Source: Amoebophrya sp. A120 (Eukaryota; Protista; Dinoflagellata). From it: a stretch of 64,000 bases of DNA. Made by a program: the position numbers and the translations under genes. The notes under the pieces are model-generated. The model worked only from the letters and a program-made list of their open reading frames with translations, did not search any database and was not told the origin of the DNA. How positions within the stretch are numbered: the first letter of the stretch is position 1; the number at the start of each line of letters is the position of its first letter. The stretch spans positions 1,864,281 through 1,928,280 of the forward strand of contig CAJINV010000013.1 in assembly GCA_905178155.1 (NCBI GenBank). The letters are read 5' to 3'. This document shows, piece after piece, positions 1 to 42,937 of this stretch.

Positions 1-3000
1 GGCGTCAGCGTCGGCGGCAAGGGCACCTTCCAGGGATCCTTTTCCTGCATCAGCCACGCGCAACTCGGCTCGGCGTTGTCCATCCGCGCGACCGCGCGGG
101 TCGGCAGCCGGATGTCCGTGCTTGACATGCTCGGTCTGGGGTCCACCGTGTCCACGCGAACCATGGCTCGCTTCGGCTCCGGCCTGTCGGTCGTTAACGC
201 CGCGAAGATTGGCGGCAAATTGAGCGTTCTGAACTTCACCGGTTGCGGTTCCGCGTTGTCCGTCCGAGGGTATGCGAAGTTCGGCAGCAAGGCATCCGTT
301 GTGGACTTCGTGGCGCTCGGTAGCAGCATCTCGGTTCGCAGCTTCATGCGGGCGGGATCCAGCGTTTCCGCGTTCGGATCCACGCACGTCGCGCAAGGCA
401 GAATGAGCGTGCAGAAGTTGTGCAACATCGGATCTGCACTTTCCGTCCGCGGTGCCATGCGGTTGGGCAGCCGTGCGTCCGTTTTGGATACGCTCGCGCT
501 CGGCTCGTCCATCTCGGTCCGAGCCTTCAGTCGGTGCGGCAGCAGCGTGTCTGCCGTCGGCCTCGTCCGGGTCGGCAGCCTGCACATGGCGTCGGTGATT
601 GGCGTCACGCACCTCGGGTCCAGCCTGTCCGTCCGCGGGGTCACCAGGTTCGGCTCCAAGATATCCGTGTTCGACTTCCTGCAGCTCGGCTCGTCCGTCT
701 CGGTCCGACAGTTCGCGCGGTTCGCCAGCAGCGTGTCTGTCGCCGGACCCAGAGTGCGCGCCGCGGGCATGGCGTCCGTGCTCGACTTCTCGGTGCTGTC
801 GAGTAGCATTTCCGTCCGGTCGTTCGGTCGACTGGGCGGGAAAGTCTCCGTCCTGGACATGGTTAGCCTCGGCTCCTCGCTCTCGGTGCGCACTTACTGC
901 AGGATTGGGTCCAGCTGCAGCGTCATGTCCCACGTCCCGGGTGTGGGTGGAAGACTGTCTGTGCTCGAGCAGGCGACGCTGGGCTCCATGCTGTCCGTCC
1001 GCGCGTACGGGAAGGTCGGTTCGCGCATGTCGGTCCTCGACATGCTGGCGCTCGGCAGCTCGGTCTCGATCCGGCACTTCGCCAGAGTCGGCAGCAGCTG
1101 CAGCGTCAAAGGCTTGACCGCAGTTGGCTCTTGCCTGAAACTGTCCACCATCGGCTTCCTCAGTGCGGGCTCCAGCTTGTCCGTCCGCTCGGCTACCAAA
1201 TTCGGCTCGCGCGCGTCCGTCTTGAACTTCCTGCAGCTCGGCTCCAGCATGTCCGTCCGGGGCATGCTCCGACTTGGCAGCGGCATGTCCGTCAAGGGCC
1301 TAAGCAACCTCGGCGGCGCGTTGTCCATCATCGAGCAGGCCACTATGGGTAGTTCCGTGTCGCTCCGCAACATGGCCAGACTCGCGGGCTCCGCCTCGAT
1401 CATTGAATTCGCCGTCTGCGGCTCCGCGCTGTCCATGCGTGCGCTCTGCAGGATCGGCAGCAGCATGAGCGTGACGGGGGTGTCCAGCTTGGGGAACAGA
1501 CTCTCCGTCCTCAAGTTCGCGACCTTGGGCTCCGCATTGTCCGTCCGCAGCATTGTCAGGTTCGGATCGAAGATGTCCACGCTGGACATGTTCCACCTCG
1601 GCTCCAGCATGTCCGTCCGGTCGTTCGTCCGGCTGGGCTCCGCGTACAGCATTTCCGGCAACCTGCGATTCGGATCCATGCACACCGTGTCCGTCGTGCA
1701 CCACACGAGCCTCGGATCCACGCTGTCCGTCCGCGGCTTCGCGAAGGCGGGCAGCAGACTGAGCGTCCTCGACTTCCTGAACCTCGGCAGCAGCGTCTCG
1801 CTGCGCGCCATCACCAGAATGGGCTCTTCCTGCAGCGTGACCGGATCAGCGAACGTGATGAGCCAGATGAGCGTGCTGTCGCACGTCCACCTCGGCAGCA
1901 CCCTGTCCTTCCGCGGCTTCGCGAAACTGTCCGGCGGCGCCTCCGTGTTGCAATTCACGGCGCTCGGCAGCGCGCTTTCCGTCAGAACGCACACCCGGTG
2001 CGGTTCGCGTGTCTCGGTGCTCGACTGCCTCCGACTCGGGAGCACGATTTCGCTCCGCGCCGCCACGCGGTTCGGTTCCGGAATCTCGGTCGCCGGGGTG
2101 GCGAACACGGGCAACAAGTTGTCCGTGCTGAACTGCGCGGCTTTGGGCTCAACGCTGTCCGTCCGCGGAGCCTCCCGGCTCGGCAGCCGCGCCTCCGTGA
2201 TCGACTTCTTCAACATCGGTAGCGCGATCTCTATCCGCGCGGCCCTGCGCCTCGGCAGCGCGCTGTCCGTGGCGGCCGACAGCAGCATCGGCGGCACGAT
2301 CTCGATCGTGAAGCTCACCAACGTCGGCAGCTCGCTCTCCGTCCGCGGAGTGTCGAGACTCGGCTCGCGCGTGTCCGTCATGGACTGCTTGACGCTCGGT
2401 AGTTCCCTGTCGATCCGCGCGGCCGTCCGCCTGGGCTCCAACCTGAGCTGCGTCGGCCGGTGCGCGATTGGCTCCATGCTGAACCTGTCGCTGAACCAGA
2501 TCGCACACTTGGGCTCCACCCTGTCCGTCCGGGCGGCCACCCGATGCGGCAGCCGCATCTCCGTGATCGACTTCATGAGCCTGGGTTCCTCGCTGTCCCT
2601 CCGCGGCATGACGCGTCTCGGCTCCGGCGTTTCGGTGTCCAACGACGCGAAGTTGAAGGGAAGACTGTCGATCCAAGAGCAGCTGCACGCGGGCAGCAGT
2701 CTTTCCCTGCGTGGCGACTTTAGACTCGGTAGCAAGTTCTCCGCACTGTCCTACGCGCAATGCGGGTCGTCTCTGTCCGTCCGCGGGTCGAGCCGATTCG
2801 GGTCGCGCGCTTCGGTGTTCGACGTGCTGAACTTGGGTTCCACGCTGTCGTTGCGCAACATGATGAAGCTCGGGTCCACGGTGTCCACGTTCGGGGACAT
2901 CGCCGCGGGCACGAAGGTGTCCATCCTGAACACGGTCTTCATGGGCTCCACCCTCTCGCTCCGCTGCGGGAGCAGGATGGGCAAGAGTTGCTCGGTCCTG

Positions 3001-6000
3001 CAGCACGTCAGCTGCGGCTCGGCCTTGTCGCTCCGCAACGTCGCCAGAATGGGCAGCAAGGCGAGTGTCCTCGCGTTCGTGAATTTGGGCAGCTCGCTGT
3101 CCCTCCGCAACAAGGTTACGGTCGGCAAGCAGGCATCCGTGCTGCGGTTCTGCCACCTGGGAAGCGGCCTGAGTATTCGCAACACACTGAGGATGGGGTC
3201 CCGATGCTCGGTCCTCGATCTGTGCCAGCTCGGCTCCACGATCAGCGTGCGCAGCAGCAGCCGGTGCGGCAGCAAGTTTTCTGTTCTCGACATGGTCAAC
3301 CTCGGTTCCTCGATCTCCATCCGAGCCATCATCCGCATCGGCAGCGGCCTGTCCATCCAGGCGACCAACAACAGGATTGGCGGCCGGCTTTCCGTCACCG
3401 GAATGCTCCAGATGAGCAGTACGCTCTCGGTCCGCGCGACCAGCCGCATGGGCAGCCGCGCCAGCGTGCTTGACCTGCTGAACCTCGGCTCGTCCATGTC
3501 GGTCCGCAGCTTCTCGCGACTGGGATCCGCCATCTCCGTCCGCGGGCTAGTGTCCTTCGGCAGCATCACCAAGCTGTCCGTCATCGACGCAACGAACCTC
3601 GGTTCGTCGCTCTCCGTGCGGGGTATCGCTCGTATGGGCAGCCGGGCCTCGGTCCTAGACTGCCTGCAGTTGGGCTCCTCGATGAGCTTGCGCACCAATG
3701 CCTACTTCGGATCCAGAGCCAGCGTCCTGCAGTTCATGCATGTACGTTATTTTTTCAAGAGATAGAGAACTACGTAGATCTTTTACCCTTATGCTTATTC
3801 GCCGACTGTACCTAGCATTTAGCTTTCTTGTCCTCCTTTAGCTTTATCTTGATCATGAATGAAGCAAAAGCGTACAATTTTCAAAAATGAAACTCCAAAC
3901 AGATCGGCTCCACGTTGTCTCTCCGGTCGCAATCGCGTATCGGCGGCAGCACGTCGATGTTGCAGTTCTGCCAGCTCGGGTCCGCCCTCTCCGTCCGCAG
4001 CCAGAGTCGGCTGGGCAGCCGGGTTTCCGTCCTGGACTTCCTCGGCCTGGGCTCCTCGGTGAGTGTGCGAGCGATGATCCGGTCCGGTAGTTCGCTCTCC
4101 GTGAAGGGCAACGTGCGGTTCTCCGGCGAATCGGGCCTGTCTATCCTCGGACAGCTGCAGACCGGCTCCGCGCTGTCGCTGCGCAGCTTCAGCCGCATGG
4201 GCTCCAACTGCTCCATCCTGGACTACGCCTTTCTAGGCAGCACGATCAGTGTGCGGTCCTTCCTCCGCGTCGGCTCCGCGCTCTCGGTGAAGGGCCTGGT
4301 CGCGGTGGGCAGCTGCAACCGACTCTCCGTGATGGGAATCACGAACTGCGGATCCGCGCTCTCCGTGCGTGCAGTCAGCAGATTGTCGTCGCGGTTGTCC
4401 GTGCTCGACCTGCTCAGCTGCGGATCGGCACTGTCCGTGCGTGGTCACACGCGCTTCGGCAGTTGCATTTCCGTGCTGGACTTCGTCAATCTAGGTATAC
4501 TTACTTGCGTAAAATGAGTTTTTCGTTCCTGTTTCACTTGGTTGATGTACGCGATTTCATCTTTCACATTTGAACATCGGACTGATTTTCTTGTACTCAT
4601 CTGGTATTTCCGCTACCCTGTTCCGTATCAAAATCAATACGCAAACTACTTCCAATCAACTCCAACAGGATCCGCAATGTCGATGCGTGCGTACTTCCGT
4701 TGCGGCAGCGGCCTCAGCGTGTACGGTCCGACCAACGTGGGCAACAAGTTCTCCGTTTTGGAAACAGCGAAACTCGGGTCGTCGCTGTCCATCCGGGGCA
4801 TCAGCCGCTTCGGCTCGCGGGTGTCGCTGGTGGACTTCTTGAACCTTGGTTCCTCCGTGTCCATCCGGTCGTACAGCCGGCTGAACAGCGGCATTTCCGT
4901 GCGCGGGTTGGTCAACGTCGGCTCCATCCACGCGGCGTCTGTGATGAACTTCCTGACCGCGGGAAGCTCGCTCTCGGTCCGGTGCCACTCCCGGTTCGGC
5001 TCCAAGATGAGCGTCCTGGATATGCTCAACCTGGGCTCGGCCTTGTCCGTCCGTGGCATCAGCCGGCTCGGCTCAAGGCAGTCCGTCTTCGACATGTTTG
5101 CCCTGGGCAGCAGCTTCAGCATCCGCAGCTTCAGCCGCCTGGGCAGTGGGTTGTCCGTGGCGGGCGACGTGAACACCAAGGGCATGACCTCGATCCTCGG
5201 CTTCCTGCAGACCGGCAGCAGCCTGTCCATCCGCACGCACGTCCGGTTCGGCAGCCGCATGTCCGTGCTGGATGCCACGTGCCTTGGCTCCTCGATCTCC
5301 GTGCGCGCGTTCCTCCGGCTAGGCTCCGCCTGCTCCGTCAAGGGCATCGCGCACATTGGCAGCATCTACCAGGCGTCCGTGATCAACCAGATCCACGTTG
5401 GCTCCAGCCTGTCCGTCCGCGGACGCACGCAGTTCGGCAGCCGAATGTCCGTGTTGCTCTTCGTCAACCTCGGTAGCGGCTTGAGCGTCAGGAACACACT
5501 CAGGCTCGGCTCCAGGGCGTCCGTCTGCGACTGCTTCGCGCTCGGTAAAATTTGTTTGGTTTTTGTGATTCTTGCTGATGTTGTCAACATAGTCTTGATT
5601 AGAGATGACTTGGGAGCACGAAGATGAACATATTGACAATGCAATTAAGATTCTCATCAATGTTTCACAATCCCAACAAAAAATCCCAGGCTCGTCGCTC
5701 TCGTTCCGTTCCGCGGTTCGGTTCGGTAGCAGCATGTCGATCGTGGGCAAGATGGTCGGCAGCAGCAAGTTGTCCGTGATCGAGCAGGTGAACTTCGGTT
5801 CTACCTTCTCTATCCGTAGCTTCATGCGGTGCGGTTCGTCGCTCTCGCTGTACGGCAACCTGGTCGGAGGCAAGGTCGGAACGCCATACTCCATCTACGC
5901 CGCCGCCACCATCGGCAGCTCCTTCAGCTGCAGGGCGTTTGCAAGGTACAAGACAACTTGATGTTGAGTAGAACAGAAGGTTGATGATAGATTTGCGTCG

Positions 6001-9000
6001 TTCCTTTTATGTTGCTCACTGCGGAATGAAGTTGATGAATGTTGAATTTGCATACGAGTCCTTTCATGAACAACTTTCCATGTAAAACAATGAAAAAAAC
6101 AGACTCGGCTCGGCAGTGTCCATGTTCGCTAACCTCCGGGTGGGCGGCAATTTGAGCACTCTCGAGCACGCGGAGATTGGCTCGTCCATCAGCGTCAGAG
6201 GAATTGCACGCCTGGGAAGCAGAGCATCCGTGCTGGATTGCTTGATGCTCGGTACAACTATTTTTGTGTGTTTCTGAAGTGAGGTTTCGCTTTTCAAATG
6301 CCTGAACTTTGGTGACAGCTTGATTCACACGGGCCTTTTTTTCCATAATACATGAAAACACCTTGCAAAAAACATCAAACACTTTATCAGGCTCCTCGAT
6401 CTCTGTCCGCGCGTTCATCCGCGCCGGATCCGGTCTTTCCGTGAAGGGCCTGACCCAGTGCGGAAGCAGCTTCCAGATGTCCGTCCTGCAGTGGGTCAAG
6501 CTCGGGTCCTCCTTGTCGGTCCGCTCCGTCTCCCGCCTCGGTAGCAAGGCCTCCGTGCTGAACTTCGTGGCGCTCGGCAGCGCGCTGTCGGTGCGGTCCA
6601 AGACCTGCTTCGGCAGCCGCATGTCCGTGCTCGACACTTTGAACCTCGGTTCGGCGTTGTCGCTCCGTCGGTCGATGAAGATGGGCGAATCTTTGTCCGT
6701 GCTGCAGTTCTGCCACCTGGGTAGCAGCCTCAGCGTGCGCAGCACCGGCCGCATCGGAAGTCGCGCCAGCGTGGTGGACTTCTTGACACTTGGTACTTAC
6801 ATATTTTCACGACTTTTTATTCGATCTTGTTGTCTGTTCCATTCAGTTTATTTGGTTTTCCACCATCGAGTCTATGAGTAGAACCTCCACCCCGTATGCG
6901 GACTACAGAAAGCGTCACAAATGAAAAGCAAACAACATCGCAAATGTTCAAATCTCGGAATCTCTGCAGGTTCCTCTTGCTCTGTGCGTGGACACGGAAG
7001 ACTGGCAGGCAACATGAGCATCTTCTCCTTCGTCCAGATGGGTAGCAGCTTGTCGGTGCGATCCGCATCCAGATTCAGCTCGCGGTGCAGTGTCCTAGAC
7101 ACCATGGCGCTCGGCTCCTCCTTGAGCTTGAGGTAAAAATGTTGTGAATTTATTTTGGCAATTGTGAATAAGCGAAAACGATATTTGCTTCTTTTTGTCA
7201 TTTGTTTTCCAATGCCAATGCTTCTGTTTCCTCAGCCTTACGAAATAAGAACAAGTGCCACTGTAATACACAACGAAACTGTTGAATCTACCTTCTTACA
7301 ACACTCAAAAACAGGGCTGCGGTGCGCCTCGGCTCCTCTTGCTCCGCGTACGGCAGTACCATCTGCTCGAACGCGAGGATATCCGTGACCGGCCTGGCGA
7401 ATGTCGGTTCCGCCTTGTCCGTCCGCGGCGTAACGCGCTTCGGCTCCCGCGTCAGTATCCTGGACATGTTGAACATCGGTAGCAGCGTGTCCGTCCGTGC
7501 GGCGGTTCGCTGCGGCAGCAGTTTGTCGGTGATCGGCCGAGCCGCGGTTGGCAGCTGTCTGAAGGCCAGCGTGATCAACTGGGCAACATTGGGAAGCGCC
7601 TTGAGCGTCAGGTAAAGTTTAGAGTCGAGTTTTTTGCTTTGTTGGCTTACATACTACTAATTTTCTTGTGATTGTGTTTTATTTAGTGCACGAGCATGAT
7701 AAAAAGGGAGGTGCATGACAACAAACAACTATGCAACATTAAAACCAATTCGATAATCACAGGTCGCATTCGCGTCTTGGATCACGCGTGTCCGTTCTGG
7801 ATATGCTCCGGCTCGGAAGTTCCGTTTCCTTGCGGTCCATTTGCCGCACTGGCTCCGGCATGTCCATCTTCGCGAACTGCAGGGTAGGAAGCAGTTGCAG
7901 TGTGCTGGGCTGTCTGACCGTCGGTAGCGCGTTGTCCATCCGAAACTCGATACGGTTCGGCGGCAAGATGAGTGTTCTGGAATTCACCCAGCTCGGCTCC
8001 TCGCTGTCCCTCCGCGGCTTCGCCAGAATCGGCTCCAGCTGCAGCTTGGTCAGCAACGCCAGAATCGGAGATCACTGCTCGGTATGGACTTTGTTTGGGG
8101 AGAGTGATCAAAGTTTGATGCATAGTCGGGTCTTTTTCTACCATGACTTTTGCGATGAAATGAAGACCAGCAGCGCATTACTTATCAAATGAAAACCATT
8201 CCCAATGACAAACCAATCAAAACAAAACAGGTTGTCTCGCATTCGCATCTCGCCTCGTCAATTTCCGTCCGTGGAATTGCCCGGCTGGGATCAAGAGCGA
8301 GCGTCCTGGACATGATGATGCTGGGCTCGACCCTTTCCGTGCGTAGCTGCGTGCGCGTCGGCAGCTCACTGTCTGTCGCAGGCAACACGAGATTTGGCAC
8401 CTGCTCGCAATTGAGCGTGTACAGCTACCTCACCGCGGGAAGCAGCATCAGCGTCCGCTCACATGCGAGGTAATAATACTACCTGAATGGATGATTTTGA
8501 TGAAGCAATACACCAATTTTGGTGCTATTCTGCTGCAGCTTTTGAGATGAGAGGCCGTGCTTATTTTGACGGATTTTCTTCCACTTCATGTTTGTATGAT
8601 GCTAACAACACAAGAAACTCAAAACTAAATCTAAATTCAAACGTCACCGCCCATGAATCACAGACTCGGCTCCCGCGTGTCCATCCTGAACATGCTGGCC
8701 CTCGGGTCCTCCATGTCCGTCCGCGGCGTGATGCGGTGCGGCTCCGCGCTGTCGGTGCAGGGTAACCTGCGATCCGGCCCAAGCCGATTCTCCGCGTACG
8801 GTGCGGTGCAGATCGGCTCTTCGCTCTCCGTCCGCGGCTACACGAAGTTCGGCTCGCGGGTGTCCATCCTCGACGCGGTTTCCCTCGGCTCCTGCTTGTC
8901 CATCCGGGCGTACGGCAGAATGGGCTCCGGCTTGTCCGTCGCGGGCAGCTTCAACGCGGCGGCGGCTACCCGACTGTCCATCACCAGTGGCGTCCACATC

Positions 9001-10400
9001 GGCTCCACACTGTCGATGCGCTCCTTCACGCGCCTGGGCAGCAACGTGTCCGTGATCAACTTCGCCAGCGTCGGGAGTTCGTTCTCCATGCGGTCCTTCA
9101 GCAGGTTAGGCGGCAACATCTCCGTGCTGGACTTCTCCAACATGGGCTCGGCGCTGTCCGTGCGCTCGTTCGCGAGACTCGGCAGCGGCTTGTCCGCCAA
9201 GGGCAGCGTCCGGATTGACAGCACGCTGTATGTCGGCGATGCGGCCATCACCAGTGACAACTCCGGGAACCCGACCATGAAACTCTACCCGTACAAGACC
9301 AGCAGTGTGGCCAACAAGGCGGTATTTTATTTTCAGGATAGTTTGCTTTTTGAAATGATTTTGGTTCTTTTGGGTTAGATTTCATCCAGCAGCACTCTAA
9401 GATTAGAATTTCTCGTACTGTTCATACATTCAAGCCAAATGCGCACTTCTAATGCGAATCCGACAAATTGAAAACAGGGTATCACCATGGTCTACTCGGG
9501 TGGGGCAGTCGCCGGTACGCTCCACGGCACCTGGTCCGCAGACAACGCGGTGACTTCCTCCGATAAGAGGCGGAAGCGCGACATTGCGCCGCTGTACCAG
9601 GAGTTGCTGAAAGTGGCACCAAGGAACGAGAAGGCGCTGGCTCTGATGGAGCAAGGTAATTGCAAAACTGATTTTTTGCTGTTTTTGTCATGTAGAAAGC
9701 TCTTCAGTAGAATTTCAACGAAGTTCCGTTAGGCATGCAGAATTCGTTTTACTAGAAAAGGAAACGATCTCCAAAATCATCCCCAAAATGCTTATCCCAC
9801 AAATAAAACTCAGGTCGCGTTGCCGACGCTAAGGATGCCACGATCATCCAAGTGCTGCAAGAGCTCCGGCCTGTTAGCTACAAGTACAAGCGTGCTTCGG
9901 AGTCGAAGTACAGCCGGTACGGGTTCATCGCGCAGGAGATCGAAGAAGTGCTGCCGAACATGGTGGTGAAGTCCGAACAGGACGGCATGCTGCAACTGCG
10001 CCTGGACGACCTGATCGCGGTGCTCACACTCGGTATCCAGTCCCTGGACAGCCGCGTGTGGCAGCTCGACGAGAAGTTGACTACGATCGACATCAAGGTC
10101 GAGGAGAACTACGAGAAGTTGACCGATAGGATGAAGACCATCGAGACCATGATCCGGAAGGTGCTGATCGGCAAAAAGAACAAGGAGATAATGTTGGCAT
10201 CGAATGCTGTCAACGCCACCGCGGATAGTAATTCTGCAGCGATCGCAGCACACGAGCAAGTGATTGCACAGCAGCAGGTCAGCGTCGAAAGCACAATTGT
10301 GAACGGGGTTCAAGTGACAAAGACGTCAAACACGACGGTCATTCTGAACGACACGAATCTAACCGTGCTCAACGCGACTATGGTCGAGATCTTCGGATAA
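1..10400 (+). CDS. Giant 12-aa-repeat (predicted beta-helical fibre) protein with C-terminal peptidase S74 / intramolecular chaperone domain and coiled coil; 5'-partial, at least 2818 aa
   Basis: Exons joined by hand at GT-AG introns: <1-3741, 3903-4494, 4669-5544, 5690-5945, 6103-6251, 6391-6792, 6970-7132, 7315-7611, 7763-8081, 8231-8469, 8664-9321, 9478-9655, 9814-10400 (8457 nt, in frame, repeat register kept across junctions). About 200 units of GS-x-hydrophobic-S-V-x6. C-terminus has TSSDKRRKRDI...LRPVSYKYK...YGFIAQEIEEVLPNMV...LRLDDLIAVLTLGIQSL followed by heptads. Confidence 0.9.
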
Positions 10401-13400
10401 AAAAATAGTAGCTAGTAGTAGAGAAAAAAATTGAAAAAAAAGCGCTCCGATGGAGAGTCGCTTCGGAAATTGAAAAACCGTTGTACTGGAAAGTAATAGA
10501 AACAGTGTCACAAGCAGATTACAGCAAGAATTTGTACCGAAAAATCAGACTTTGATACCGTTGTGAATAATATCAGACGGAAAAGAATTTCTATCAGAAG
10601 TACGAAACAGCAAATATTGCTATTCCTTGACGAATAGGAAATTAACACGCTATGACAAAAAGTGTCACTTCACTTTGAATAACAACTTCTAGCAACAAGA
10701 TTCAGCTTTATCGAGGAGAGATGAAGATTTACTTTTTCGATTTACTTTCGCGCAGATAATATCAGATTGGAATAATTTTATCAAAAACAGTATCAACACT
10801 AAGAAATATGAAAGGTTTAACAATGTCGCCTGTCTTGTCTGAAAAATGTTGTTGTTTGCATGAAATATTCTTCACCTGAAATAAGATATTCTTCTATCGA
10901 CACGTGCCCGTCTTCCTGCGGGACACAAATCTTTATAATGTTTCTTTTCTTGCACAGAACAAAAAATTTCGGAAGCTACCAGGCTAGAATTTTCTATGTC
11001 TGGTAACCTTCAAGGAAATTAGGCTGGCTATTTGAATTGGTAAGTACGAGGTACAAATATCATCACAATTGCTAATGCTAGTTTTGCCTGGATATTCTTC
11101 TCATGATATCCGGTCAAAAACTACTACCGATTTTTATACTTCTTCATACAAAAAAGAAAAGAAATTGTCTACAAGGCTACAAAACAGTTTCGATAGAACT
11201 TATCGCTACGAAAGTAAAGCGCACACAGCAGGAGAATAGAACACATCTTGCTCTTGCAAAAGCGAAAGTGGAACAGAGGAAATTTATCCGCTATGGGTGT
11301 TGAAAATAATGGCTAGAAATCAAACCTTTCTGGATTCATCAAGGCCGAAACACATTCTCCGAGACCGTCCACCTCGGAGCTTGTTTTTTGCGTTTTTGAT
11401 CTTCAGGAAAAAACATCGCACTAGAATAGAAACTTTTTTCGAGTTTAGTCCAGGCTCGCTCTTTCTGTCCTGACGTCCATTTTCAGGGGTAGATAGAGTC
11501 TGAGCAGTAAGACAAACATCGAAATCGCCACTTTGGAAGAACTTCTAGCTCAGGATGCCCGCGGTAGTCGAAGACAACAGAAGAAATATTTTCGCAATTC
11601 AAGGCAACGACACAGCAGCTGGTGCGTATGAATTTCCAAACAGTTCTTTATCTCAGACAAAAAGCATCAAAGTATTTTCTTCTCGACAAATTCGCAAAAA
11701 TAGCTGGTACTATTTCTATTTTCTATTACCTATGAACAGGTTTCGAATGGTTACGATTTGATTTCTATTGCATTACACTAATCTCTTGAAAGTTTTAGAT
11801 CTATCTATCAAAACCAAATCACCTCCAAGGTAGGTGGAATAGCAAGGGCGATTGCTGACTACCTGGGTGAAATTATCACTAGTTAAATTGCTACTATCAT
11901 GATCTATTGTTTGATTTATGAAAACAGTCGAAAAATCAGTATTTGACGCAGATTTTCTACCGATAAATTGCTCTTGCCTCTCGGAAGGTTTACACAGCAA
12001 GTTTAGCGTCGCCAGTATCTACCAATATTTCGTGTCTACTAACTTCGCCTCACTTTTTTTTCTTTGGTGTCAGAATTTGGTACACGAAATCATTCCTACC
12101 TCTAAATAACAGTTTCACCTCAAGAATCAATCAAGCACGAATCAGATGTCGATAAAAATTTGAAGTCTCGAAACTCAAAGCTCTATCTGTAAAAGCGTAA
12201 GCGTTCAAAAAAAAGGCGAACCAAGGCCGTTGGGGCTTTTTTTGCGATTGCGTCGTGATAATTGGCGCTCTTTTGATTTGCTGTGCCTTAGTCGTGTTCC
12301 TCTTTTCTCCTAGTTCAAGATCCGGCGATCATTGCGTGCTCGTCACCGAGAAAGCAAACCAAACACAAAGTGGCCCACATTGTGGAGAGGTTGAGCACCC
12401 CCCAAAAATCGTCATCGTATCTACACTCGAAGCATCATCTTCGTCGTCGGCAGTATAGCAGATATGATTCGTCTGTTCGTTTAATATGTTTTCACTATAC
12501 AAAATGATTGCTCTACGCATTTTTCCTCTCGGGATTTTTCAACGATCCACTCAGATTACAAGGGAATATTACGAGTCCGAGTCGGATGAAGTCATGTTCA
12601 GGTATGTTCGTGGGATTGGTAGCGAAAAAAAGTCGTCTTCAAGTGATTTTTCCGGTTCGTTGGGGACGTAAAAATGACATCGAGCAATCGGGTTCCTTAT
12701 CCGTCGAACGAGGAGCCCTCTAGATAGCAGAGCTCCAGGTCAAGACTTATCTTCCAGTTTGATGAGTAGTTCTTCATCGACACACACTTGTGCACAGCGC
12801 TTCTACTACAATTTTTTCTCCTTGGAAAATATGAATAAAGTAAGAAGATGAAACTACACTAGAACAAATAATAAAGGTAGAGTAACAATATATACAAACG
12901 AGTAAAAAAAAGTAGAAAAACAACCATGCCGGAACACGGCCTATGATCTTCCTACTTAGTTCAACCACCGGGAGAGTGAAGCTCAGGCTTGTCTTCCTAC
13001 TTTGATATGGGAGAATAATACCACGACGTGGAGTTGGCGGAGAGCCGTGTGGCCTGACGACCACCAGACGACCGCGGCAATACCGTCAGTACCGTCGCGA
13101 ATCATTTGTGCGTTGGTGCAACTGAATAGATAAGGTTTGTTTATTATACTGCTTGCTGTGATCTTGAGTGGCTTCATCGTGCGGCTCGCACGACAGTGAA
13201 CACCCAATTTATCGTCTATTTTGCTCGTGGAAGCCACGAAGTAGATGACTGAAAAGCATTACGTTCTAAAAACAAATCTGAGGTGTTGGCTTTGTTCCGC
13301 TCGTCGGGAGCTTGAAGGTTCAGCAACCAACAATAGCGTGGGCGCTAATAGCATTAGCGAGGAGCCGGACTTCTCTGAAGACAACCGGTATATTCCTGGT

Positions 13401-18092: not shown

Positions 18093-18845
18093 AAACAGCA
18101 AATAAGAAATTTAGAGAGCTAAACATTCAAAGTTGATGTACTTCGGCGTCAATTTGTTACAGTGACGGGGTGCGAGAAAACAAGCGCGCCTGCTGCTGCC
18201 TGTATGATTTTTGTTGTGTCGTGTGTCTATGGTCGCACCGTACTACTTCAGTATCGAAATCGAATTGCTCGACGCAAAATAAAGATTTTGTAGAAGCCAA
18301 CATGTTCATCTTTCAGGTCACGTCATTGTTGTGCCTGAAGCATTCGCTTCGCTGCTCTTCGACATTGTCGAGGGCATTGATACGCTCTAATGATCGTCCT
18401 GCACTTTTCAGAATTTTGACGAGGCACAAGCAACTGGTAGCACGATTCGGTCACACTAGCAAAAATAACAAGACGTCGGTCCGAGCATTTTACGCGTCGT
18501 GCTTGAATGTTGAAGTCAATGGCAGTCGTGGAAAAGAGTTAGAGTTTGAACTGCCAGATCGGTCTGCGTGCAACAGCAAAAAACGTCCAAAGCCGTTTCG
18601 GTTCATCATATCGAGCATCGTATTCGTACAATTACCGTCGTGCAAACAAAGATTTTCATTTTTGCTATGAATGATGTCTGATTCTTGGAAGTCTTTTCGT
18701 CATCGTCCTCAACACATTTTCGTATCCATCGTACAGCGTCTCCTTATCGACAACGAACTACTCCCCGCCGAATATTTGTTTCTAAAACATTTTCAACGAC
18801 GTCGCTGTATCGCCCGTGAAGTTTCAATCTCTCAGCAAAGAAGCC

Positions 18846-21800
18846 ATGTCGCATGCAGACAAAGCGCCTCATTACAGCCCTTGGATCGGGCTCGATGGGG
18901 AAGATGGCAGAGACACTTCCGTGCTCGTCTTCCAGCCGGCGCTGCAGCCCGGAGGAGCGAACGTGCTCAACCGCGTCGCCGTTGGGAACGGCACGGTGCT
19001 GAGTCAGTATCAACTGTGTGTACTGGAGAGCAAAAAGACTGATGGGAACAAGGCGGGGAACAAGCAAGCAAGCTATCCCGAGCTGGTGAATCTGGTTCCG
19101 CACACGGTGTTGCAGAAGCCTCGTACTGGCGGTTCAAAAGGGAAAGCAGCCGGCTACAACAGCCAGGTTGCCCCACTATCAGCTGAAGCCGACAACATGT
19201 CATTAGGAGCAGGTACCAGCACGACTCCAACAACGACGTTGCTCTGTACACCAGCGCCCAGCCTCCCGACCCAGCAGCAGTCGCAGCGCGTCACGCATCA
19301 GCAGAACATGCAAAACTCAAAAACTCTCTATATCGTCAACCTTCCGACGGATGGCGACAAGAACAATCAGGTGAAGGTGAGACAAAAGTATGAGCACCAG
19401 AGCCCGATTGAGTTTGTCTGCTGCGGCGGCGACCGGATCTTCATCGCGTCCAAATTTCACCCGCACTTGATGCTGAACAATTCATCTTCCAGTACAAGTG
19501 AATCGAACGGGCGGGGGAGCACGAGCAGCACCGCTGCTGCTGCTGACGACGCGGAGGATTTGGACAAGAAAGATCCAGTCGCGCCGCCGGAGGTTCTGAT
19601 GCTGAACAAAGATACGGAGAGCGACGAGGAGGACCACCTGAACCCGGATGAGGAGCACAAACACGCCCTTTTCGACGCTTTGCACGCGGAAGAGGACCAC
19701 GGGATCACGTACATTGCCGTCACGGTTCTGAAAAGGAAACAACTCGAGGGTAGTTTGAACGCCGCGCATTTGGTTCTGAAGAATCTGAACAAAAGCTTGA
19801 CGTCCAATTTTCAGCAGCAAGACGGGGAAGAGGAAATAAACGGACCAAATGGTCGTGCCGTGAATCTGGCGGATTCAACAACTGTTGTAGACGGTGAAAA
19901 TTATGTCGGTTCAACATTCTATTACGAGGAGGAGAAAGACATGAAATTCTGGGCGAAGATCGAGGGGCAGTCGCTGAGTTGCTTCAGCTGCGATAACACC
20001 GGGGAACACTTGATTTCGGCCGACAACGGCAGCCACCATCACATTCGCGTGTGGGACCTGTTTTCAGCGGGAGGGACTGCAAGCGCGAAGCGAAGAAAAA
20101 GCAGGAAAAGCAAAGGAATGTCCAAGAACGACCTGATCAGCAACTTCACCCCTTTTCCGAACATAAAGCACGTTTTGGGCAATCAGCACCACGACCTGAT
20201 TCAGGCGTTGCAATTCTGCACGACTTCCAAAGAGAGATTCTTCTCCGCTGGAAAAGATAAAACGGTCTGCGCCTGGGTCGGCAACCGGTGTGTCCAGAAG
20301 TTGGAGAACGTGGGCGGGAATTTGGAAAATTCTTTACTGCTGATCGACAACCAGTTTCTCTTCCTGAACGCCAGCAACGGGGAGGAGGACGAGGAGGAAA
20401 ACTTGAATGTTTCTTCCTTCCTGAAAGTGTGGCATTCCGAGTCCCTGGAGCTGTTGAAGGAGCTGGAGCCGCCGTTGAGCGAAGTGGAAAATGCCGTCGA
20501 GAGTGGCGGAACTCATTATGTCAAGCCCACGCCGCTAGCGTCCGTCCCCAATGGGTTCGCCGTCACGAAAACGCACGTGGTTGCTGCGGGAGCTGTTGTT
20601 TCTGGTGGCAGCACGGCGTCTCCTCTGATGTCGTGGCAACGGGGGTTGCACATCGAAAACGGAGCAAATGGAGGTGCAACAGATCATACTGGAGTCGACA
20701 GTACTTTTACAACAACCTCTCACGGCGCGGCGCAACTCACTCCAGTCAGATACCTGGCGAAGCAAAACATTACAATTCCGGCAAGCAAGCAAGGACCCTC
20801 TTCGTCCGGTGCAACTACCAATGCGAAGAACACAGGGAACCTGACTTTAAACCGAAACAACAAACTTCTGATCTTCAATTACGGGCAAGACCCGAAGCAG
20901 AAATTCCTGCTTTCCGCCGGCGAGCAGGTGGCTCCGGACATCAACCCGAAGGATCGGAATGTCTTTCTCTGGAGCTACTTGGAAGAAAATCACCCGAGAC
21001 TAGAGGGGACTTTCCGGGCCGGCGGGTTGCAACAGCAACTGGTGAATCTCGCTCTTGGTGGGAAGGACAGCAACACGTCGCACAGCCAGCACTTGCACGG
21101 CGCTCCGCGGACGGTGATTTTCTGTGACATCGTTTCCGGGAGTTTCTGTCGCGAGTGGAAGAAACAGCGCGGTCCGCACCACGTCTTGACGCAGAACTCC
21201 ACCAAAAATCAAACCGCTGCGAAGATGTCGAAAAATGCAGCGGAACATCAAATCCAGTACGGCATCCGGTGCGTGACCAATCGGGGCGAAATTTCCGTTT
21301 TCTTCGGGCCGGATTTCCTCCGCAAGGACCAAGAGCACCACGCCGTCGATTTCGATTTTGCGGAGAACGCGAGCCACTGTCTCGTGCATTCCGTCTCCGC
21401 GGTGGGGGCGGCCGGGAACAACCTCGCAATGCTGGTCAGCGAGGACGGGAGTGACTTCAAAATGCTCATCGTCGACGGGTTCCTCGGGACGGTGCTCGCG
21501 ACAAGGGACGTAGAGTCGAGTTGTTGTTTGCTCACCTCCGCAGCGTCGGAACTGATTGTCGCGCCGGAACAAGGTTCAAAAGCGGGAGCGTCGACTAGCA
21601 GTAGTAGTTCTTCTTTGCAGGTCTACGGCTACAGCGGAACAATAGCAAATACTAGCAGCTCGTCTTCGCCATCACTATCGGAAAACGGCACGATTGCCAT
21701 TCCGGATGGTGCGAAGCAGATCCAGCAAATTGTCAAAATCGACGACAAAGAGTCGAAAACCTTCGAATTTTTAGAAGTCGAGGAACTCCCTCTAGGGGCG

Positions 21801-24800
21801 AACCCGCACGACAAGAACGCGGAAAAATTGAAGGTCAATTCTTTGGAATCCGTCTACCGCTTAGGGTACTCCGGGAAGAGGCAGCCGGCGAGTACTATTG
21901 TTTGCGCCGCGGAGAAGAAAATTTTCATCTACCGGAAGTTGCCCAGTTTAAGCGGGAATAAGGAGAAAGCCACGGCTCTGTACAGCAGCGGTAGCATGGA
22001 CAACTTGGAAGCGCCGCCACCGCCGCCGGACTTCAGTTCCGACACCCCGCTGTTGAAGGGGCCCCCGGCGTTCCCCTCGGTGCCGAAATCGCCGATGAGT
22101 GCGGCGACGCCGGACGTGAATGGTGGGGGTCCTGATGCGGTGAAAGTAAATCCGAATCCGTATGACCTGCTGGCAACCATGAGCATGTCGGGTGTGGACG
22201 AAACCGACTCCATCACCGCCGTCGCGGTGGGGAACCTGGACAGTCGAGGAGGCGTTTGGAATGTGTTTGCCGGGTTGTCATCAGGTAAGATCGCGATTTT
22301 CGAATTGAAAAGCGAGAATGACAGACGCACGGGGAGAACCTCCTTGCTCTACGGCGACGGCGGGAAGCAGGGGATTGCGCTGACTTTGACGGCGAAACTG
22401 CAGAAAATCGTTCCCAGCGCGGCAAGTGCAAATAAAACTTCGGGTGCTGGAAATGGAAATGAAATCACCACGCTCGAGTTCGACGAGACGACCCGTTTGC
22501 TGTGTGTTTCGACGAAATCCTTTGCTGGAATTCGGTTGTTGGATACAAGCGCCGGCGTTTACGTAAATTCCCTTGACGGGTTCTCGAACAGGACTGCGAA
22601 TGTCCTGAAGTCGAAAACTTCCGTGCGGCTGTTCCACGCGGGGAGAGGCGGAAGTGAAGAGGAGGACGAAAATCTCATCTTCGTGCGCAACAAGCAGAAT
22701 GGGGCGTTGATGGGCAAGTTCGACAGTTCTTCGGGTCACGAGAAGTCCGCAAAGATTTACTTTCTGCAGGCCTTTTATCTGGAACGAAAAGTAAACGGAA
22801 GAACGGGTCAAGAGTTGCAACATCCTTGGTTCTCTGAGAACCTGGTTCGTAACGCCCGCGACGCGTTTAAAAAGTTCAACGAATCGGCCAAAGACGAGAG
22901 ACCCGTCGAGGGGGAGGTCAGCAGCGGGGAGGAGATGGATTCCACGCTCGAAACGCAGGAACTGATCCTCTCCGCGGGCACCGACGGGAACGTGATCGTC
23001 TGGCGGGGCGAAACGGGGGAAATTCTCCGGAAGTACAGCGGGCACGCCAACGTGATCGGCGCGGTGCCCATCGATTTCGGGACCGGCAAGGGGTTCCAGT
23101 CCGCGGATGCGAAGTCGTTTTGGGTGCTCAGTCTGGCCAGTGAGGAGTTCGAGAACAAGGGAAACATGATGACAGGAGATGTAAGTGGTCCAGAAGGCAC
23201 TGCAAATGCCGCAAGTACTACTAGTCTCCCGCCCTCGTCCAAATACCTGCAAATCCGCGATGCGAACTACGCAAAGCACCCGAATTTGAACGCAAAAGTT
23301 GAAGCGTCGTCGATCAAGGATCTCCTGACGTCCAGAAGCTACCCGCTAGGCGAGAAGATCACGAGGGCAAGGACAATTTTGGTTGGAGGCGGGGGACAGC
23401 CGCAGCACCAGCAGAAATACAAACTCCAGCTCCTCTTCGAGGACAGAAACAAACTGGCCTTTGCCGCGGACATCTCCCAGCTCCTTCCCTCCTCCATGTG
23501 CCTCCCGCTCTGGTACACGGAGTGGCAAGCGCGGCGCGCGAGCCTGGCGGGCGGGAGCGGGGGCGCGGCAGGAGCTGCGAACGCGAGCAAAAGTGGGCAA
23601 CAACAGCAGCTGCAGCACCACCAGCACGCCGCGGGCGCAAACTACTTGTCTTCGCCAGTTGTGAAATTTGGCCCCGGGGCGGTGGCTCCGTCCGCAACGG
23701 CGAATTTATCTGTAGCGAAACTACGGAAGGAACTGATTCCACACCACATCGATTTTGCGAAAAACCTGTGCGGCGACTTCGCCCTCCTTTACTCCGCGTT
23801 GGACTTCGACCGGCTGCACGCGGAACGGTTTGCAATAGAAAATTTTTCCGGCAAAACTACGAACAAGAAGCAAAGCCTCTCGTTATCCCCGTTGATGCCT
23901 TTCGAGATCTCGATCGACCGCGAGGGCGACGCGGGCGTGTACACCACGTCCCAGACGGGCAAGACCAACTACCTCGCGGAGAGCGACGCGTACACGACGC
24001 TGCTGTCCCTCGTGCTATCCCAGGACAAGCTGCACAGCAGGGAGCGCGCGGCCTCGAACGTGTTGAAGCACGTAGTGGAGGCGGTGAAGGAGAGAGGAAC
24101 AGCTCCAGCGGCAAACTCCACAAATCCGAAGATTTACGGCACTTTTCAGGACGACAAATTCGTCCACATTTTGTCCGCGTGCGTGAAAAAGTACCCGGAC
24201 GCGGTGTCGCAGTTCCTGAAGCAGATCCCGATGCTGGAAACAAACCAGAAGATCGCGTTGCAGGACTGCGTGTCCCCCTACTTCCCCTTCCGCCAGCCCC
24301 CCATGGGAAAGGAGGACCCGATCGGCGCCTTTGAGGTGGCCGGGTCCGACTCCTGCTTCGGCTTCAGGGTGTGGCAGAACTTCATTGACCAGAAGATCCG
24401 GATAACCAACCTGATGGACAGCGAGAAGCTGATTTTTGGCGGAACCGGAGGGGTCTTGATAGGATACTTGAAATGGTTCTTCCAGGGCCCCCGGGAAGCG
24501 GCGTATGGTGCAGTGTCCGACCACGGGGGAAGTAAGGTAAATAGAGCAGGAGGTCGTGATAGTAGCGCAATAAAAGAACAACAACAAGTCGTGGACGGCG
24601 TCGTCGACAAAAACAATACAGGCGGTGGTTCTCTCGCGATGTACCAGCAGTTACTAGAGCAGAGCGCGCAAGATTCCACCGTGCCGAAAGCAGATAGGGA
24701 AGTTGGCCCGTTGCATCCCACCGGAGAGTCAGAATACTACCTAGCGCAGGCGTTCGTGATGCCCTACCCCGGGTTCGCGCAGGTGTTTTCGAACGACGAA

Positions 24801-26228: not shown

Positions 26229-27148
26229 CCACTGTTTATTTCAAGGCGACATAGATACATGTGCTGGCATGTTAATAATTACACTACACATAGTCCTCCA
26301 TAGAGCATCAACTTTACGCACTCGCACGCATTGCAGTATCAGCTTTTTCTCTTTCTATGTATTACAATAGAAGCACGACTCGCACTCCACCGTGGCTGGA
26401 GGTGTCACTAAGTGAATTCAATACGTATTTCTTCAATGTGTCAATGGTGTCATAAGCAATAACTTTTGTTGTACAGTAAGTTTTCCACTACCTCTAGAAC
26501 GAGTATTTCGTGTCAGAAATATTAAAGTCACACTCCTGCTACAAACGAGAGGAGCTTCAACATGGTCTCCGAATTTCGAACAACGCGGCGAAAGGAATTT
26601 CCACGGATAGGAAGAACAGCACTCGTCGGTTCAGCTCGTACAAGCACCTGATGTTGACAGTAGTCAACTTGCTCCAACAGTCTCCCTTTCGGTCCAATCA
26701 TTCAGGAAGTCGTTTTTTCGTCCACATTCTGCTCTCAAACCCACAATTCGGATGAAAGAAATAGAAATACCCGTATCTTCGTATGACCTCGGTCGTTTTT
26801 CAATTTTTTCGTTCACAGACGAAGTTCACGACGTCGGTTGTTCCTGATAATTCGTACACTCCGAGCGTCCTCGTGCGCCGAACTTTACTGACGGCACAGC
26901 ATGTTGCAATTCCTTTACTTCCGAGTCCTCCATAAGAACTTCCCTTTTGCAAGCAGGGTGGCGGTCTCAGAGTGAGGTTTTAGAAGTTAGTTGAACTCTA
27001 GAACCCCGTAGAAGCAAGAAGACCCCTCGTACTGCCCGTACACAAACAGAGTAGAACTCTGTACGCCTAAACATCTCAGTAGTTGTTTAGGCTAGAAAAA
27101 ATCACTAGAAACAAAGTTTCGACAAGAACAAAGAGAACCCGGCGCATC

Positions 27149-41775: not shown

Positions 41776-42937
41776 GTCGACTCGAAAACTCAATAGCGAG
41801 GAGGATTCATTGCAATGTCAATTTGTCCTCGGTACGGGAAGCGTTACGATGAAAAGATGAACGCAACAGTTGTGCATCAAAAGAATGCCAGGGAATACCT
41901 AGCAAGCTCTGTAACCATTTCTTATTTCATTTGTAGTGCGTCTCATAATCAGAGGCGAAATTGTCCACCGTTTTCACCGCAGCGAGGGGTCTTCATTGAA
42001 ATAGCACTGGAGAAAAGAGGTGACGGTGAGTAAACGCGTTCCCACCTGTACTAGAATTATGGTAAATCCAAACAGAAACGCCGATATTAAGTCAATTAGT
42101 CGCTTGGAGGCGTGCGAAGAGGACCAGAAAAAGAAAAAGACAACGGCTCCGTGATTTCCTCTTCCTCAGTGATTTCAGTGAATCGTCAGCCCAAGCAATA
42201 GACCCGCGATGCACAAGAAAAAGAACCTCGGTCCTGGCGGTTCTCTGTCGTGTGGAAAATGAAATGGAACAGCTGTTTTCGGTCCATTTTGCTGAACTTT
42301 ACGTGTCCTTTAAACAAGATTTGCATTTCAGGCCGCAATTTTTGTCAATGTCACTCCTGTGGTTATATTTCTTTGGTCGGTGTTTGAAAGGCAAAGGAGA
42401 AGTTCAAGTTCGGTTTTATGGAGGTCTTGTCATCGGAGTCCGATGAAATTCACACTTCTGTTGATGTTGCAATTTTTCGGTGTTCAGATATGTTTCGGTA
42501 ATTAATTCTGAAAGAACCCGTGATTTAATTATAGGTGGTTTGTTAGAAGCGACTGTGGCAAAGTCAAAGATTAAGATATTCATTCTCATTTTGTTTTTGA
42601 AAGTTATGTTGGAATAACGCTAACGTAACTAAATAGATACCTGCATCGCAACATCTTTAGCTACTACAAATGACATTTCTCGCATTGCATGACAGTGCTG
42701 TCCAGGTCTCACGGTTTAAACAACCCTAGTACTTTACTGCGAGCTACATACCGACGTGGTCCCGTCATCTTTGTATTTTTAGGTGATTTGATCTCCTTCT
42801 TCGTTCGCGAAGATCGTGCGAAAAGGATTCCGCCTGGAACGGTGTGCAATTGCGCTGCCTTTGCCCCCCCCCTGGGACGAGTCCTCGTGGTGGCCTCAGC
42901 TTGTAAAAAACTCATCATCATCATCTGGTAAATAATC

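Follow-up and report, generated by a model that had tools for sequence, protein, structure and literature searches.

A giant spliced gene of Amoebophrya sp. A120 with a dodecapeptide-repeat shaft and a predicted self-cleaving phage-type chaperone

Why should a spliced gene of a dinoflagellate be built like the tail fibre of a phage? This question is raised by the beginning of a 64,000-nt stretch of the Amoebophrya sp. A120 genome (contig CAJINV010000013.1, positions 1,864,281–1,928,280; hereafter the window), where a reading of the sequence alone had proposed a 13-exon gene joining a repeat shaft to an S74 chaperone. All parts of the gene lie on the forward (+) strand. Of the first visible exon, a giant one, the window includes the 3' end (1..3741), which encodes 1,247 aa of 12-aa repeats; there follow nine exons that encode aa 1248–2344 of the shaft (exons 2–10, 3903..8469: 3903–4494, 4669–5544, 5690–5945, 6103–6251, 6391–6792, 6970–7132, 7315–7611, 7763–8081, and 8231–8469) and whose joints are seen in RNA contigs. 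Exon 11 (8664..9321) contains the last repeats, to about 9234, and the start of a non-repeat neck; exons 12 (9478–9655) and 13 (9814–10400, ending with the stop codon) complete the coding region. The 3' untranslated region probably measures about 1.8 kb (10401..12180), as judged from the ends of two transcript contigs (12175 and 12183). All 12 introns are of the GT-AG type, with lengths of 139–194 nt and GC contents of 0.34–0.40 (exons, 0.54–0.65), and no folding signal was detected in them (z from −1.9 to +1.4). Splicing yields a product of 2,818 aa in one open frame, with a single stop at 10398–10400 and an open 5' end. This frame and the 12 RNA-supported joints bear out the proposed exon structure.

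The contigs of transcript run X4 have all 12 introns spliced out and those of run X5 7 of the 12, and raw reads of run X13 span introns 11 (166 reads) and 12 (211 reads). Separate transcripts for repeats and S74 domain would speak against the layout, but a single X4 contig of 5,586 nt, which reaches from 4982 to past 11000, joins the repeat exons to the S74 exons. In the two raw-read runs 3,671 reads (X13) and 0 reads (X12, which may lack the organism) cover the 3' end. No reads of run X14 fell on positions 1–2600, which is uninformative because X13 is also blank there. What could pass for a short isoform with its start at 8771 is read as a truncated cDNA. The ends of 80 metagenome loci showed no spliced-leader motif.

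The gene extends far beyond the edge of the window. A spliced contig of 39,575 nt (39.6 kb) places the window start at its position 29,336, i.e., it reaches about 29 kb further upstream, and all seven upstream self-matches listed, beside which another 155 pieces fall outside the listing, are on the same strand and in frame, with a constant offset to the DNA contig, although stops may lie between them. Exon 1 would thus continue without introns for at least 25.5 kb. From the coordinates, the product comprises at least 11,306 aa, 12,596 aa if the entire contig is coding and 21,640 aa if the furthest DNA match is included, all of these lengths resting on record coordinates and matches, not on read sequence. 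A gene of at least 11,300 codons is therefore likely, and its product perhaps exceeds 21,000 aa. The sequence-only reading had recognized the repeats correctly, but its figure of more than 2500 aa was far too low. An open 5' end is shared by 54 of 71 related ORFs.

The shaft is built from dodecapeptides. Its self-identity is 0.287 at lag 12 (0.107 ± 0.005 in shuffled sequence) and 0.332 at lag 24, and it contains 156 GSxxS motifs, compared to 14 ± 4 after shuffling, with a spacing of exactly 12 residues in 111 of 155 cases. In the unit after each anchor motif, Gly occupies position 1 in 89%, and Ser positions 2 and 5 in 81 and 88%, respectively. One turn of the LpxA helix takes 18 residues. 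The shaft might be imagined as LpxA-like hexapeptide beta-helices, each formed by one chain, without any triple helix, or the protein as an intracellular filament with a cytoskeletal or chromatin-binding function; the strongly basic charge (net +213 over 2,520 aa), a hydrophobic autocorrelation of 0.36 at lag 6, and the 131 bits that exon 1 scores against the LpxA model all fit such readings. That score is below the cut-off of 231, however, and self-identity at lag 18 is at background (0.081). Together with the tail sequons and the cryo-EM structure described below, this makes both variants improbable. When the repeat profile was compared to PDB sequences, no E-value was better than 0.026, and each of the 12 rows was of the LpxA/LpxD type. 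An exon 1 search restricted to proteins of 2,184–5,000 aa, shorter than the inferred product, gave weak negative evidence: none of 3,064 candidates matched at E ≤ 0.001. Single-chain models of the repeats had low confidence; ten window repeats gave a meaningless helix (pTM 0.21). Public sequence sets label fragments of this family as LpxA-like acyltransferases or VPS28, and these labels are an annotation trap.

The neck (aa about 2536–2591, 9235..9558) spans intron 11 and bears a family motif, H-G-x-W (9523–9534), which occurs in 49 of 52 family rows, in none of 78 viral/other rows, and in 4 of 76 bacterial rows. It leads to S-D-K-R-R-K (9559..9576), the predicted autocleavage dyad Ser2592/Lys2597, with which the Peptidase S74, or ICA, core (9559..10004) begins. 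This core spans intron 12, and an insert separates its dyad from LRPVS. Ser (9559), Lys (9574), and GFIAQE (9921) are located as initially described, and the assignment to S74 held up in an HMM search: exon 13 alone matches Pfam Peptidase_S74 (PF13884) with E 3.1e-9 and 37.4 bits, above the cut-off of 22. The ICA core also has matches in 15 PHROG families, every one of them classed under tail, and the family profile matches PDB 6f45 (E 2.6e-8). The Ser-Lys dyad is present in 110 of 110 aligned relatives and in 207 of 208 relatives with flanking anchors; its spacing (S-x4-K), the following Asp, and the Gly of GF are invariant in all 110 rows. By analogy to phage endosialidases and MYRF, Ser2592 and Lys2597 would mediate self-cleavage, with a predicted cut just before Ser2592. 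A coiled coil after the S74 domain, likewise proposed earlier, is predicted at 10005..10172 via the homologous trimerizing helix of P0012 (residues 288–338), which makes self-contacts in the trimer model. The variable C-terminal tail (10212..10400) indeed carries several sequons, namely five within the last 62 aa, all of them N-x-T. No transmembrane segment was found after Ser2592 (highest 19-residue hydropathy, 1.12).

Does this C-terminal region form a trimer? The homotrimer prediction for the homolog P0012 scored 0.79, compared to 0.00 for the best of three controls; the trimer runs agreed in at least 80% of the contacts, with a pLDDT of at least 59. Of solved homo-pairs from microbes, 21 of 30 reach the mark applied here, compared to 0 of 23 single chains; for eukaryotes the figures are 17 of 29 and 0 of 30, respectively. 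The P0012 trimer model is confident only for residues 133–334, which cover one or two terminal repeats, the neck, the ICA domain, and the coil, and its score may stem from solved ICA trimers that the predictor had memorized. In the single-chain AlphaFold model of P0012, residues 1–132 stay under pLDDT 50. Foldseek retrieved nothing at E ≤ 0.001, several of its weak top rows being trimeric phage fibers, VIA-align retrieved only coiled coils, and searches of the ESM Atlas with exon 11 and the non-repeat head of P0160 gave only sub-0.9 leads.

The sequence-only reading knew of no characterized eukaryotic structural protein with this layout, but a preprint describes the combination of GSxxSx7 repeats and a C-terminal ICA domain in Amoebophrya itself. 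TLP-12, a fibril from pond water, was resolved by cryo-EM as a glycosylated triple beta-helix with GSxxSx7 repeats (bioRxiv 10.1101/2025.09.30.679562). Among its roughly 150 candidate proteins, which are tied to the fibril by fold and motif only, are Amoebophrya proteins of roughly 20,000 aa with a C-terminal ICA domain, for example A0A8J1ZHD7 of Amoebophrya sp. A120 (19,853 aa, 1,263 repeats). The window gene shares the dodecapeptide with Gly at position 1, Ser at 2 and 5, and hydrophobic residues at 4, 6, and 12, the C-terminal ICA domain, the dinoflagellate lineage, and probably the giant length, and no difference emerged from the portions of the preprint drawn on here. Judged by its sequence, the gene fits the TLP-12 family, and the architecture itself is already known. 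Splicing, sorting, phylogeny, organelle, the dyad, and cleavage are not tested in those portions of the preprint, and a journal version published later could say more. What the present analysis adds are the RNA linkage of repeats and chaperone, the conservation of the dyad, a single clade, the trimer model of a homolog, and the N-x-T enrichment in the tails. The conserved dyad, the P0012 model, and the cryo-EM fibril with such a repeat pattern argue for the trimeric beta-helical fiber with a predicted autocleaving chaperone that was suspected at the outset.

Phage tail fibers and endosialidases (PF13884; PDB 6f45, 8jov) have in common with the window gene the S-D-x-x-x-K dyad, G-F-I-A-Q-E, the trimeric coiled coil, and the position of the chaperone at the C-terminus of a beta-rich fiber. 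In contrast to them, the window gene is a nuclear, spliced host gene several times longer, with the H-G-x-W neck motif, a sequon-rich tail, and a longer dyad-to-GF insert (68 aa; mostly 46–111 in the family and 37–51 in viral rows). As far as the sources consulted in part describe them, MYRF and MrfA resemble it in having a eukaryotic ICA domain, a Ser-Lys dyad five residues apart, a coiled-coil-driven trimer, and a short beta-helical stalk upstream (PMC3742443; PMC8326128). However, the visible part of the window gene lacks the Ndt80 DNA-binding domain, no transmembrane segment follows its ICA domain, and the profile match to 7dc3 is weak (E 0.22); moreover, the MYRF ICA domain faces the cytosol, whereas that of the window gene would be lumenal.

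Long, modular fibers with a single C-terminal S74 domain also occur in polinton-like and giant viruses (PMC12220804; PMC13659346, both as consulted in part), and the locus could be an endogenous viral fiber gene instead of a host gene. Polinton-like viruses of protists commonly have S74 fibers, the longest reaching 3,900 aa, according to the part of the source used (PMC12220804), and some phage families have repeats that resemble these weakly (phrog_36281, E 2.9e-7). This explanation is largely refuted and very improbable, given the twelve spliced introns and the lack of a viral context on the downstream side examined, where the 13 scanned ORFs belong to ordinary eukaryotic families (IDH, globin, RsmB/NSUN, SPRY, WD40) or to nothing, with no viral hallmark. 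Furthermore, repeat searches of viral contigs gave no match, and the family rows form one clade apart from the 78 viral/other and 76 bacterial S74 rows, the nearest row outside the family being 2.29 changes per site away (128 columns). The repeat profile hit no ORF of viral and bacterial loci, and among 1,400 sequences only the long proteins P0128, P0136, and P0228, which have the same 12-residue register; P0136 also ends in S74, and none of the three could be assigned to a viral contig. Wherever a relative with the repeat-neck-S74 layout carries an organism name, it is that of a dinoflagellate. The window gene nests among these relatives, in a subclade that consists of environmental sequences and excludes every named core dinoflagellate.

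Within this host family, the tails offer a hint to the destination of the product. In 185 family tails N-x-T occurs 61 times where 18.3 are expected, and after de-duplication to 94 tails 38 times where 11.8 are expected (z 7.9), although only 20 of the 94 bear any N-x-T. Among the controls, N-x-S and shifted motifs in the tails are flat, and four neighboring ORFs have 17 N-x-T versus 11.0 expected. This enrichment points to the secretory pathway and thus, against an intracellular filament, to the ER lumen. The suggestion of a possibly secreted product gains indirect support from these tails.

Because repeats and chaperone match the TLP-12 family, the product is predicted to be a sugar-coated extracellular fiber of three chains. 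Beginning with the spliced transcript, on which repeats and S74 share one contig, a giant chain, its size estimated from record coordinates, would enter the ER lumen, as the tail sequons suggest. There the coiled coil and ICA domain are predicted to trimerize, with folding zipping from the neck toward the N-terminus, after which Ser2592-Lys2597 would free a C-terminal piece of 227 aa by the mechanism of phage endosialidases and MYRF (PMC8326128; PMC3742443, each consulted in part). By comparison to TLP-12, glycans may sit on Ser2 and Ser5 of every repeat, and 0.78 nm per repeat would give a fiber of 0.7–1.4 micrometers. We regard this sequence of steps as a whole, excluding any cellular role, as quite probable.

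The cellular role is the weakest step. Our best guess, a tentative one, is a flagellar hair or its perinuclear precursor. Spores of Amoebophrya have a transverse flagellum with hairs, and the perinuclear fibrous material of dinoflagellates and perkinsids has been taken for a precursor of flagellar hairs "without chemical or molecular evidence" (PMC3377698). More doubtful is the wider proposal that dinoflagellates build both their flagellar hairs and this material from proteins of the family. In this view a phage-tail-fiber module, made up of the 12-mer shaft and the self-removing chaperone, would have been domesticated once and early, directed into the ER lumen, and glycosylated, and the number of 0.78-nm repeats would determine how long a hair becomes.

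Equally doubtful is that the same fiber is shed or serves as surface coat or mucus, for instance as carbon store or matrix. TLP-12 occurred free in pond water, its authors suggest roles in extracellular carbon storage or host-parasite interaction (in the part of the preprint used), and a C-terminal membrane anchor is absent; however, shed hairs would also yield free fibrils, and any anchor would sit at the N-terminus, since the predicted cleavage would remove the C-terminus. Unlikely, too, is work in an extrusome (the trichocyst head) or a host-attachment thread of the parasitic spore. Trichocysts form during the sporont stage and are assumed to help in host attachment (PMC9478091), known dinoflagellate extrusome proteins lack homology to those of other protists (PMC5375639), the gene's subclade stands apart from named core dinoflagellates, and its transcript is abundant in X13, but the X12 zero may merely mean that the organism was absent, and discharged trichocysts have been described as cross-striated ribbons, unlike a smooth, glycan-coated cylinder. 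The texts of PMC6176090, PMC7789003, and PMC5375639 do not mention S74 or endosialidase, nor do those of PMC9478091 and 10.1101/2025.04.10.648098 mention S74. A parasite-specific role in attachment or penetration, as once suggested, is weakened because free-living and photosynthetic dinoflagellates have the family as well (Oxyrrhis, Alexandrium, Symbiodinium, Effrenium, Biecheleria, and Apocalathium). A role outside hair, shed or surface fibril, and extrusome or attachment thread seems about as unlikely as the last of these.

The fold and layout of these proteins are already in print, whereas their job apparently is not, and, in the portions of the preprint consulted, the TLP-12 fibril is without an identified producer. 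The gene described here is a transcript-supported member with an intact predicted chaperone and a short, expressible C-terminal piece. Its family's spread in free-living dinoflagellates and its secretory signature make the composition of flagellar hairs and perinuclear fibers testable. If the flagellar-hair reading is true, this would be a second virus-type innovation in the lineage, next to DVNP (PMC10624901).

The gene at the left edge of the window (1–10400, + strand) consists of GC-rich coding sequence interrupted by 12 short AT-rich GT-AG introns, and in silico splicing of its 13 exons yields a single frame of 2,818 aa that is open at the left window edge and ends with a TAA stop at 10398–10400. 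About 2,525 of these residues form 12-residue repeats (identity at lag 12 of 0.287 vs. 0.107 ± 0.005 in shuffled sequence). Directly after the repeats follow a neck of approximately 55 aa, the SDKRRK dyad motif (Ser at 9559, Lys at 9574), GFIAQE (9921), a long helix, and a C-terminal tail with five N-x-T sequons. The feature described in the sequence-only reading is real in all these elements. Its proposed assignment to Peptidase S74, the intramolecular chaperone (ICA) domain, also held: exon 13 alone exceeds the Pfam S74 cut-off, and it matches 15 PHROG families, all 15 of the tail category. No transmembrane segment was found C-terminal to the dyad of this protein.

Within window 1–9234 the repeat units alternate between two flavours (R after LSV, or L-D), and therefore the signal at lag 24 exceeds that at lag 12; in about a dozen units, 2 inserted residues widen the spacing to 26. 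All 12 introns (3742–9813) are confined to the final 6.7 kb of coding sequence, the preceding 29 kb or more being apparently intron-free. They mostly have a T-rich 5′ half and an A-rich 3′ half, and a search for a folding signal in them found none. The remainder of the window contains an intron-free ORF of 2,480 aa (18786–26228, +) with weak WD40 matches, whose hydrophobic C-terminal part looks channel-like by eye, isocitrate dehydrogenase exons (27083–28861) followed downstream by arrays of an 18-bp and an 8-bp unit (29063–29995), a globin (42932–43684, +), an RsmB/NSUN-type methyltransferase with long inserts of low complexity (47837–51814, +), and a SPRY-domain exon (54402–54845, +).

The exons of this gene are transcribed together and spliced. 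Sequences of run X4 lack all 12 predicted introns, 7 of the 12 are skipped in X5, an estuary metatranscriptome, and raw reads of run X13 span introns 11 (166 reads) and 12 (211 reads). A single 5,586-nt X4 contig begins in exon 3, takes in the S74 exons, and reaches the 3′ UTR, and thus joins repeats and chaperone in one transcript, as had been assumed from the sequence. X4 and X1 are taken as RNA by a guess from their records, with which the missing introns in X4 and the match of X1 to the spliced form in word share and length agree. Run X12 has no reads on 1–11000; the organism may be absent from it. In X13, coverage starts at 8771, where an adapter is joined to this base in 90 reads. Presumably this is a template-switch adapter, and the start is likely to reflect incomplete cDNA synthesis on a very long mRNA; a short isoform beginning at 8771 would account for the same coverage start, but is not favoured.

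According to record coordinates, the gene is far longer than its portion in the window. The X1 record (39,575 nt) contains window 1–2600 at its positions 29,336–31,935. Counted from window position 1, 10,240 nt of it remain, the length of the 8,457-nt spliced frame with a further 1,783 nt; its transcript end lies at about 12183, at most 8 nt from that of the X4 contig. The upstream self-matches listed in this record are short, and all seven are in frame on the same strand (chance 1 in 2,187). Five matches are shared with the DNA record of run X9 at a constant offset, which argues against any intron across at least 25.5 kb. Taken together, the coordinates of the matches listed suggest a protein of at least 11,306 aa. 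It would comprise 12,596 aa if the entire X1 contig codes. X9 has two more in-frame matches (chance 1 in 9), one at 30.8 kb and one at 56.5 kb upstream; if the farther of them belongs to the gene, the protein would reach 21,640 aa.

Repeats of this design have a structural precedent. A 2025 preprint describes TLP-12, a fibril from pond water whose cryo-EM structure shows three dodecapeptide-repeat chains wound as a triangular beta-helix, with Gly at position 1, glycans at positions 2 and 5, and 18 repeats per 14 nm; it links this fibril to candidate Amoebophrya proteins such as A0A8J1ZHD7, which measure about 20,000 aa and carry an ICA domain at the C-terminus, and to some 150 alveolate candidates of unknown function (bioRxiv 10.1101/2025.09.30.679562). 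The repeats in the window agree with the TLP-12 pattern as given there (G1 89%, S2 81%, S5 88%), and at its rise the inferred chain lengths correspond to fibres of 0.71, 0.80, or 1.38 μm. The sequence-only reading was largely right about a fibre with a trimerizing, autocleaving chaperone, but the layout is not new: the architecture of repeats and ICA was already published, and our gene is a further member.

A profile of 13 C-terminal fragments matched 584 proteins among 7,993 candidates and 369 representatives at E ≤ 1e-30. All organism-named relatives with the repeat-neck-S74 layout are dinoflagellates (two Alexandrium species, Symbiodinium, Effrenium, Pfiesteria, Biecheleria, Apocalathium, Oxyrrhis, and isolate MGD), and long repeat ORFs, the longest at least 2,101 aa, also occur in related metagenome contigs, where 54 of 71 ORFs are open at the 5′ end. 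The dyad Ser, the following Asp, and the Lys are invariant in all 110 aligned rows (drawn from 123, with 13 omitted as truncated, degenerate, long, or unrelated) and present in 207 of the 208 proteins, in a set of 254, that have both flanking anchors. In trees built from few columns (121–128) and rows picked by similarity, a branch separates the family from 78 viral or other rows (SH-aLRT 96), and subsampling (27 family and 39 viral or other rows) with 76 bacterial rows added gave a support of 93. The window's protein, probably that of a syndinian, groups with unnamed environmental sequences, outside a clade (support 97) containing all named rows; no donor lineage of S74 emerged from either tree.

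Several proteins deviate from this layout. In P0129, P0224, P0168, P0230, P0167, and P0006, three of them linked to Symbiodinium or Effrenium, the repeats are degenerate, contain 6–11% proline (vs. 1.3–1.5% in intact members), and show few GSxxS motifs, yet still lie in long open frames; these proteins appear to be decaying copies in which mutation is biased. P0160, P0072, and P0223 carry a non-repeat stretch of 85–170 aa ahead of the repeats and P0166 one within them; these stretches, which gave no Pfam match above cut-off, are candidate head or inserted domains, and the proteins look 5′-incomplete. P0128, P0136, and P0228 (2,800–3,600 aa, on long contigs) share the 12-residue register, with Asn, Ser, Gln, or Lys replacing Gly1, and P0136 ends in S74; they are possible viral or bacterial shaft relatives.

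Single-chain models resolved the neck, ICA, and helix, and left the repeats unresolved. The trimer expected from the sequence was predicted for the homologue P0012 (residues 9–341), three copies of which scored 0.79 vs. 0.00 for the best control (at least 80% of contacts agreeing between runs, pLDDT at least 59), but confident contacts are limited to residues 133–334. In a microbial benchmark, 21 of 30 solved homo-pairs passed the mark applied and none of 23 single chains did; the corresponding figures in a eukaryotic one were 17 of 29 and 0 of 30. Since ICA trimers have already been solved, the pass may reflect structures already known to the predictor.

In the variable tails past the coiled coil, N-x-T occurs 61 times vs. 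18.3 expected (185 tails), and 38 times vs. 11.8 in the 94 de-duplicated tails, although only 20 of these have any. Neither N-x-S nor shifted motifs show an excess; in four neighbouring ORFs, N-x-T occurs 17 times vs. 11.0 expected. We read the excess, a pattern in sequence, as probable selection for N-glycosylation. N-glycosylation implies an ER-lumenal chain, and the chain would therefore reside in the ER lumen. Of 93 de-duplicated family tails, 24 end in Val (6% Val across tails), often as x-H-V, x-Q-V, or x-R-V, which may serve in sorting or in recognition by a protease; the C-terminus of the window's protein is I-F-G.

In the mechanism that we propose, the chain likely enters the ER lumen, and three chains would be set in register by the coiled coil and ICA. 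The neck is predicted to nucleate a triple beta-helix, with folding then proceeding up the repeats. Finally, the Ser-Lys dyad would release a 227-aa C-terminal piece, as in the published ICA mechanism (PMC8326128, PMC3742443), leaving a stable fibre with glycans likely on its repeat serines.

For the cellular role, our first guess is a flagellar hair, because hairs or hair-like fibres, whose molecular identity is not given, are reported from the perinuclear space of early dinoflagellates (PMC3377698, PMC10624901) and Amoebophrya spores carry a haired flagellum. A fibre shed as matrix and one serving as extrusome thread are close rivals. To the published architecture the present analysis adds RNA support, an estimate of size, the conservation and wide occurrence of the chaperone, a putative sorting signal, and a testable hypothesis on the organelle.
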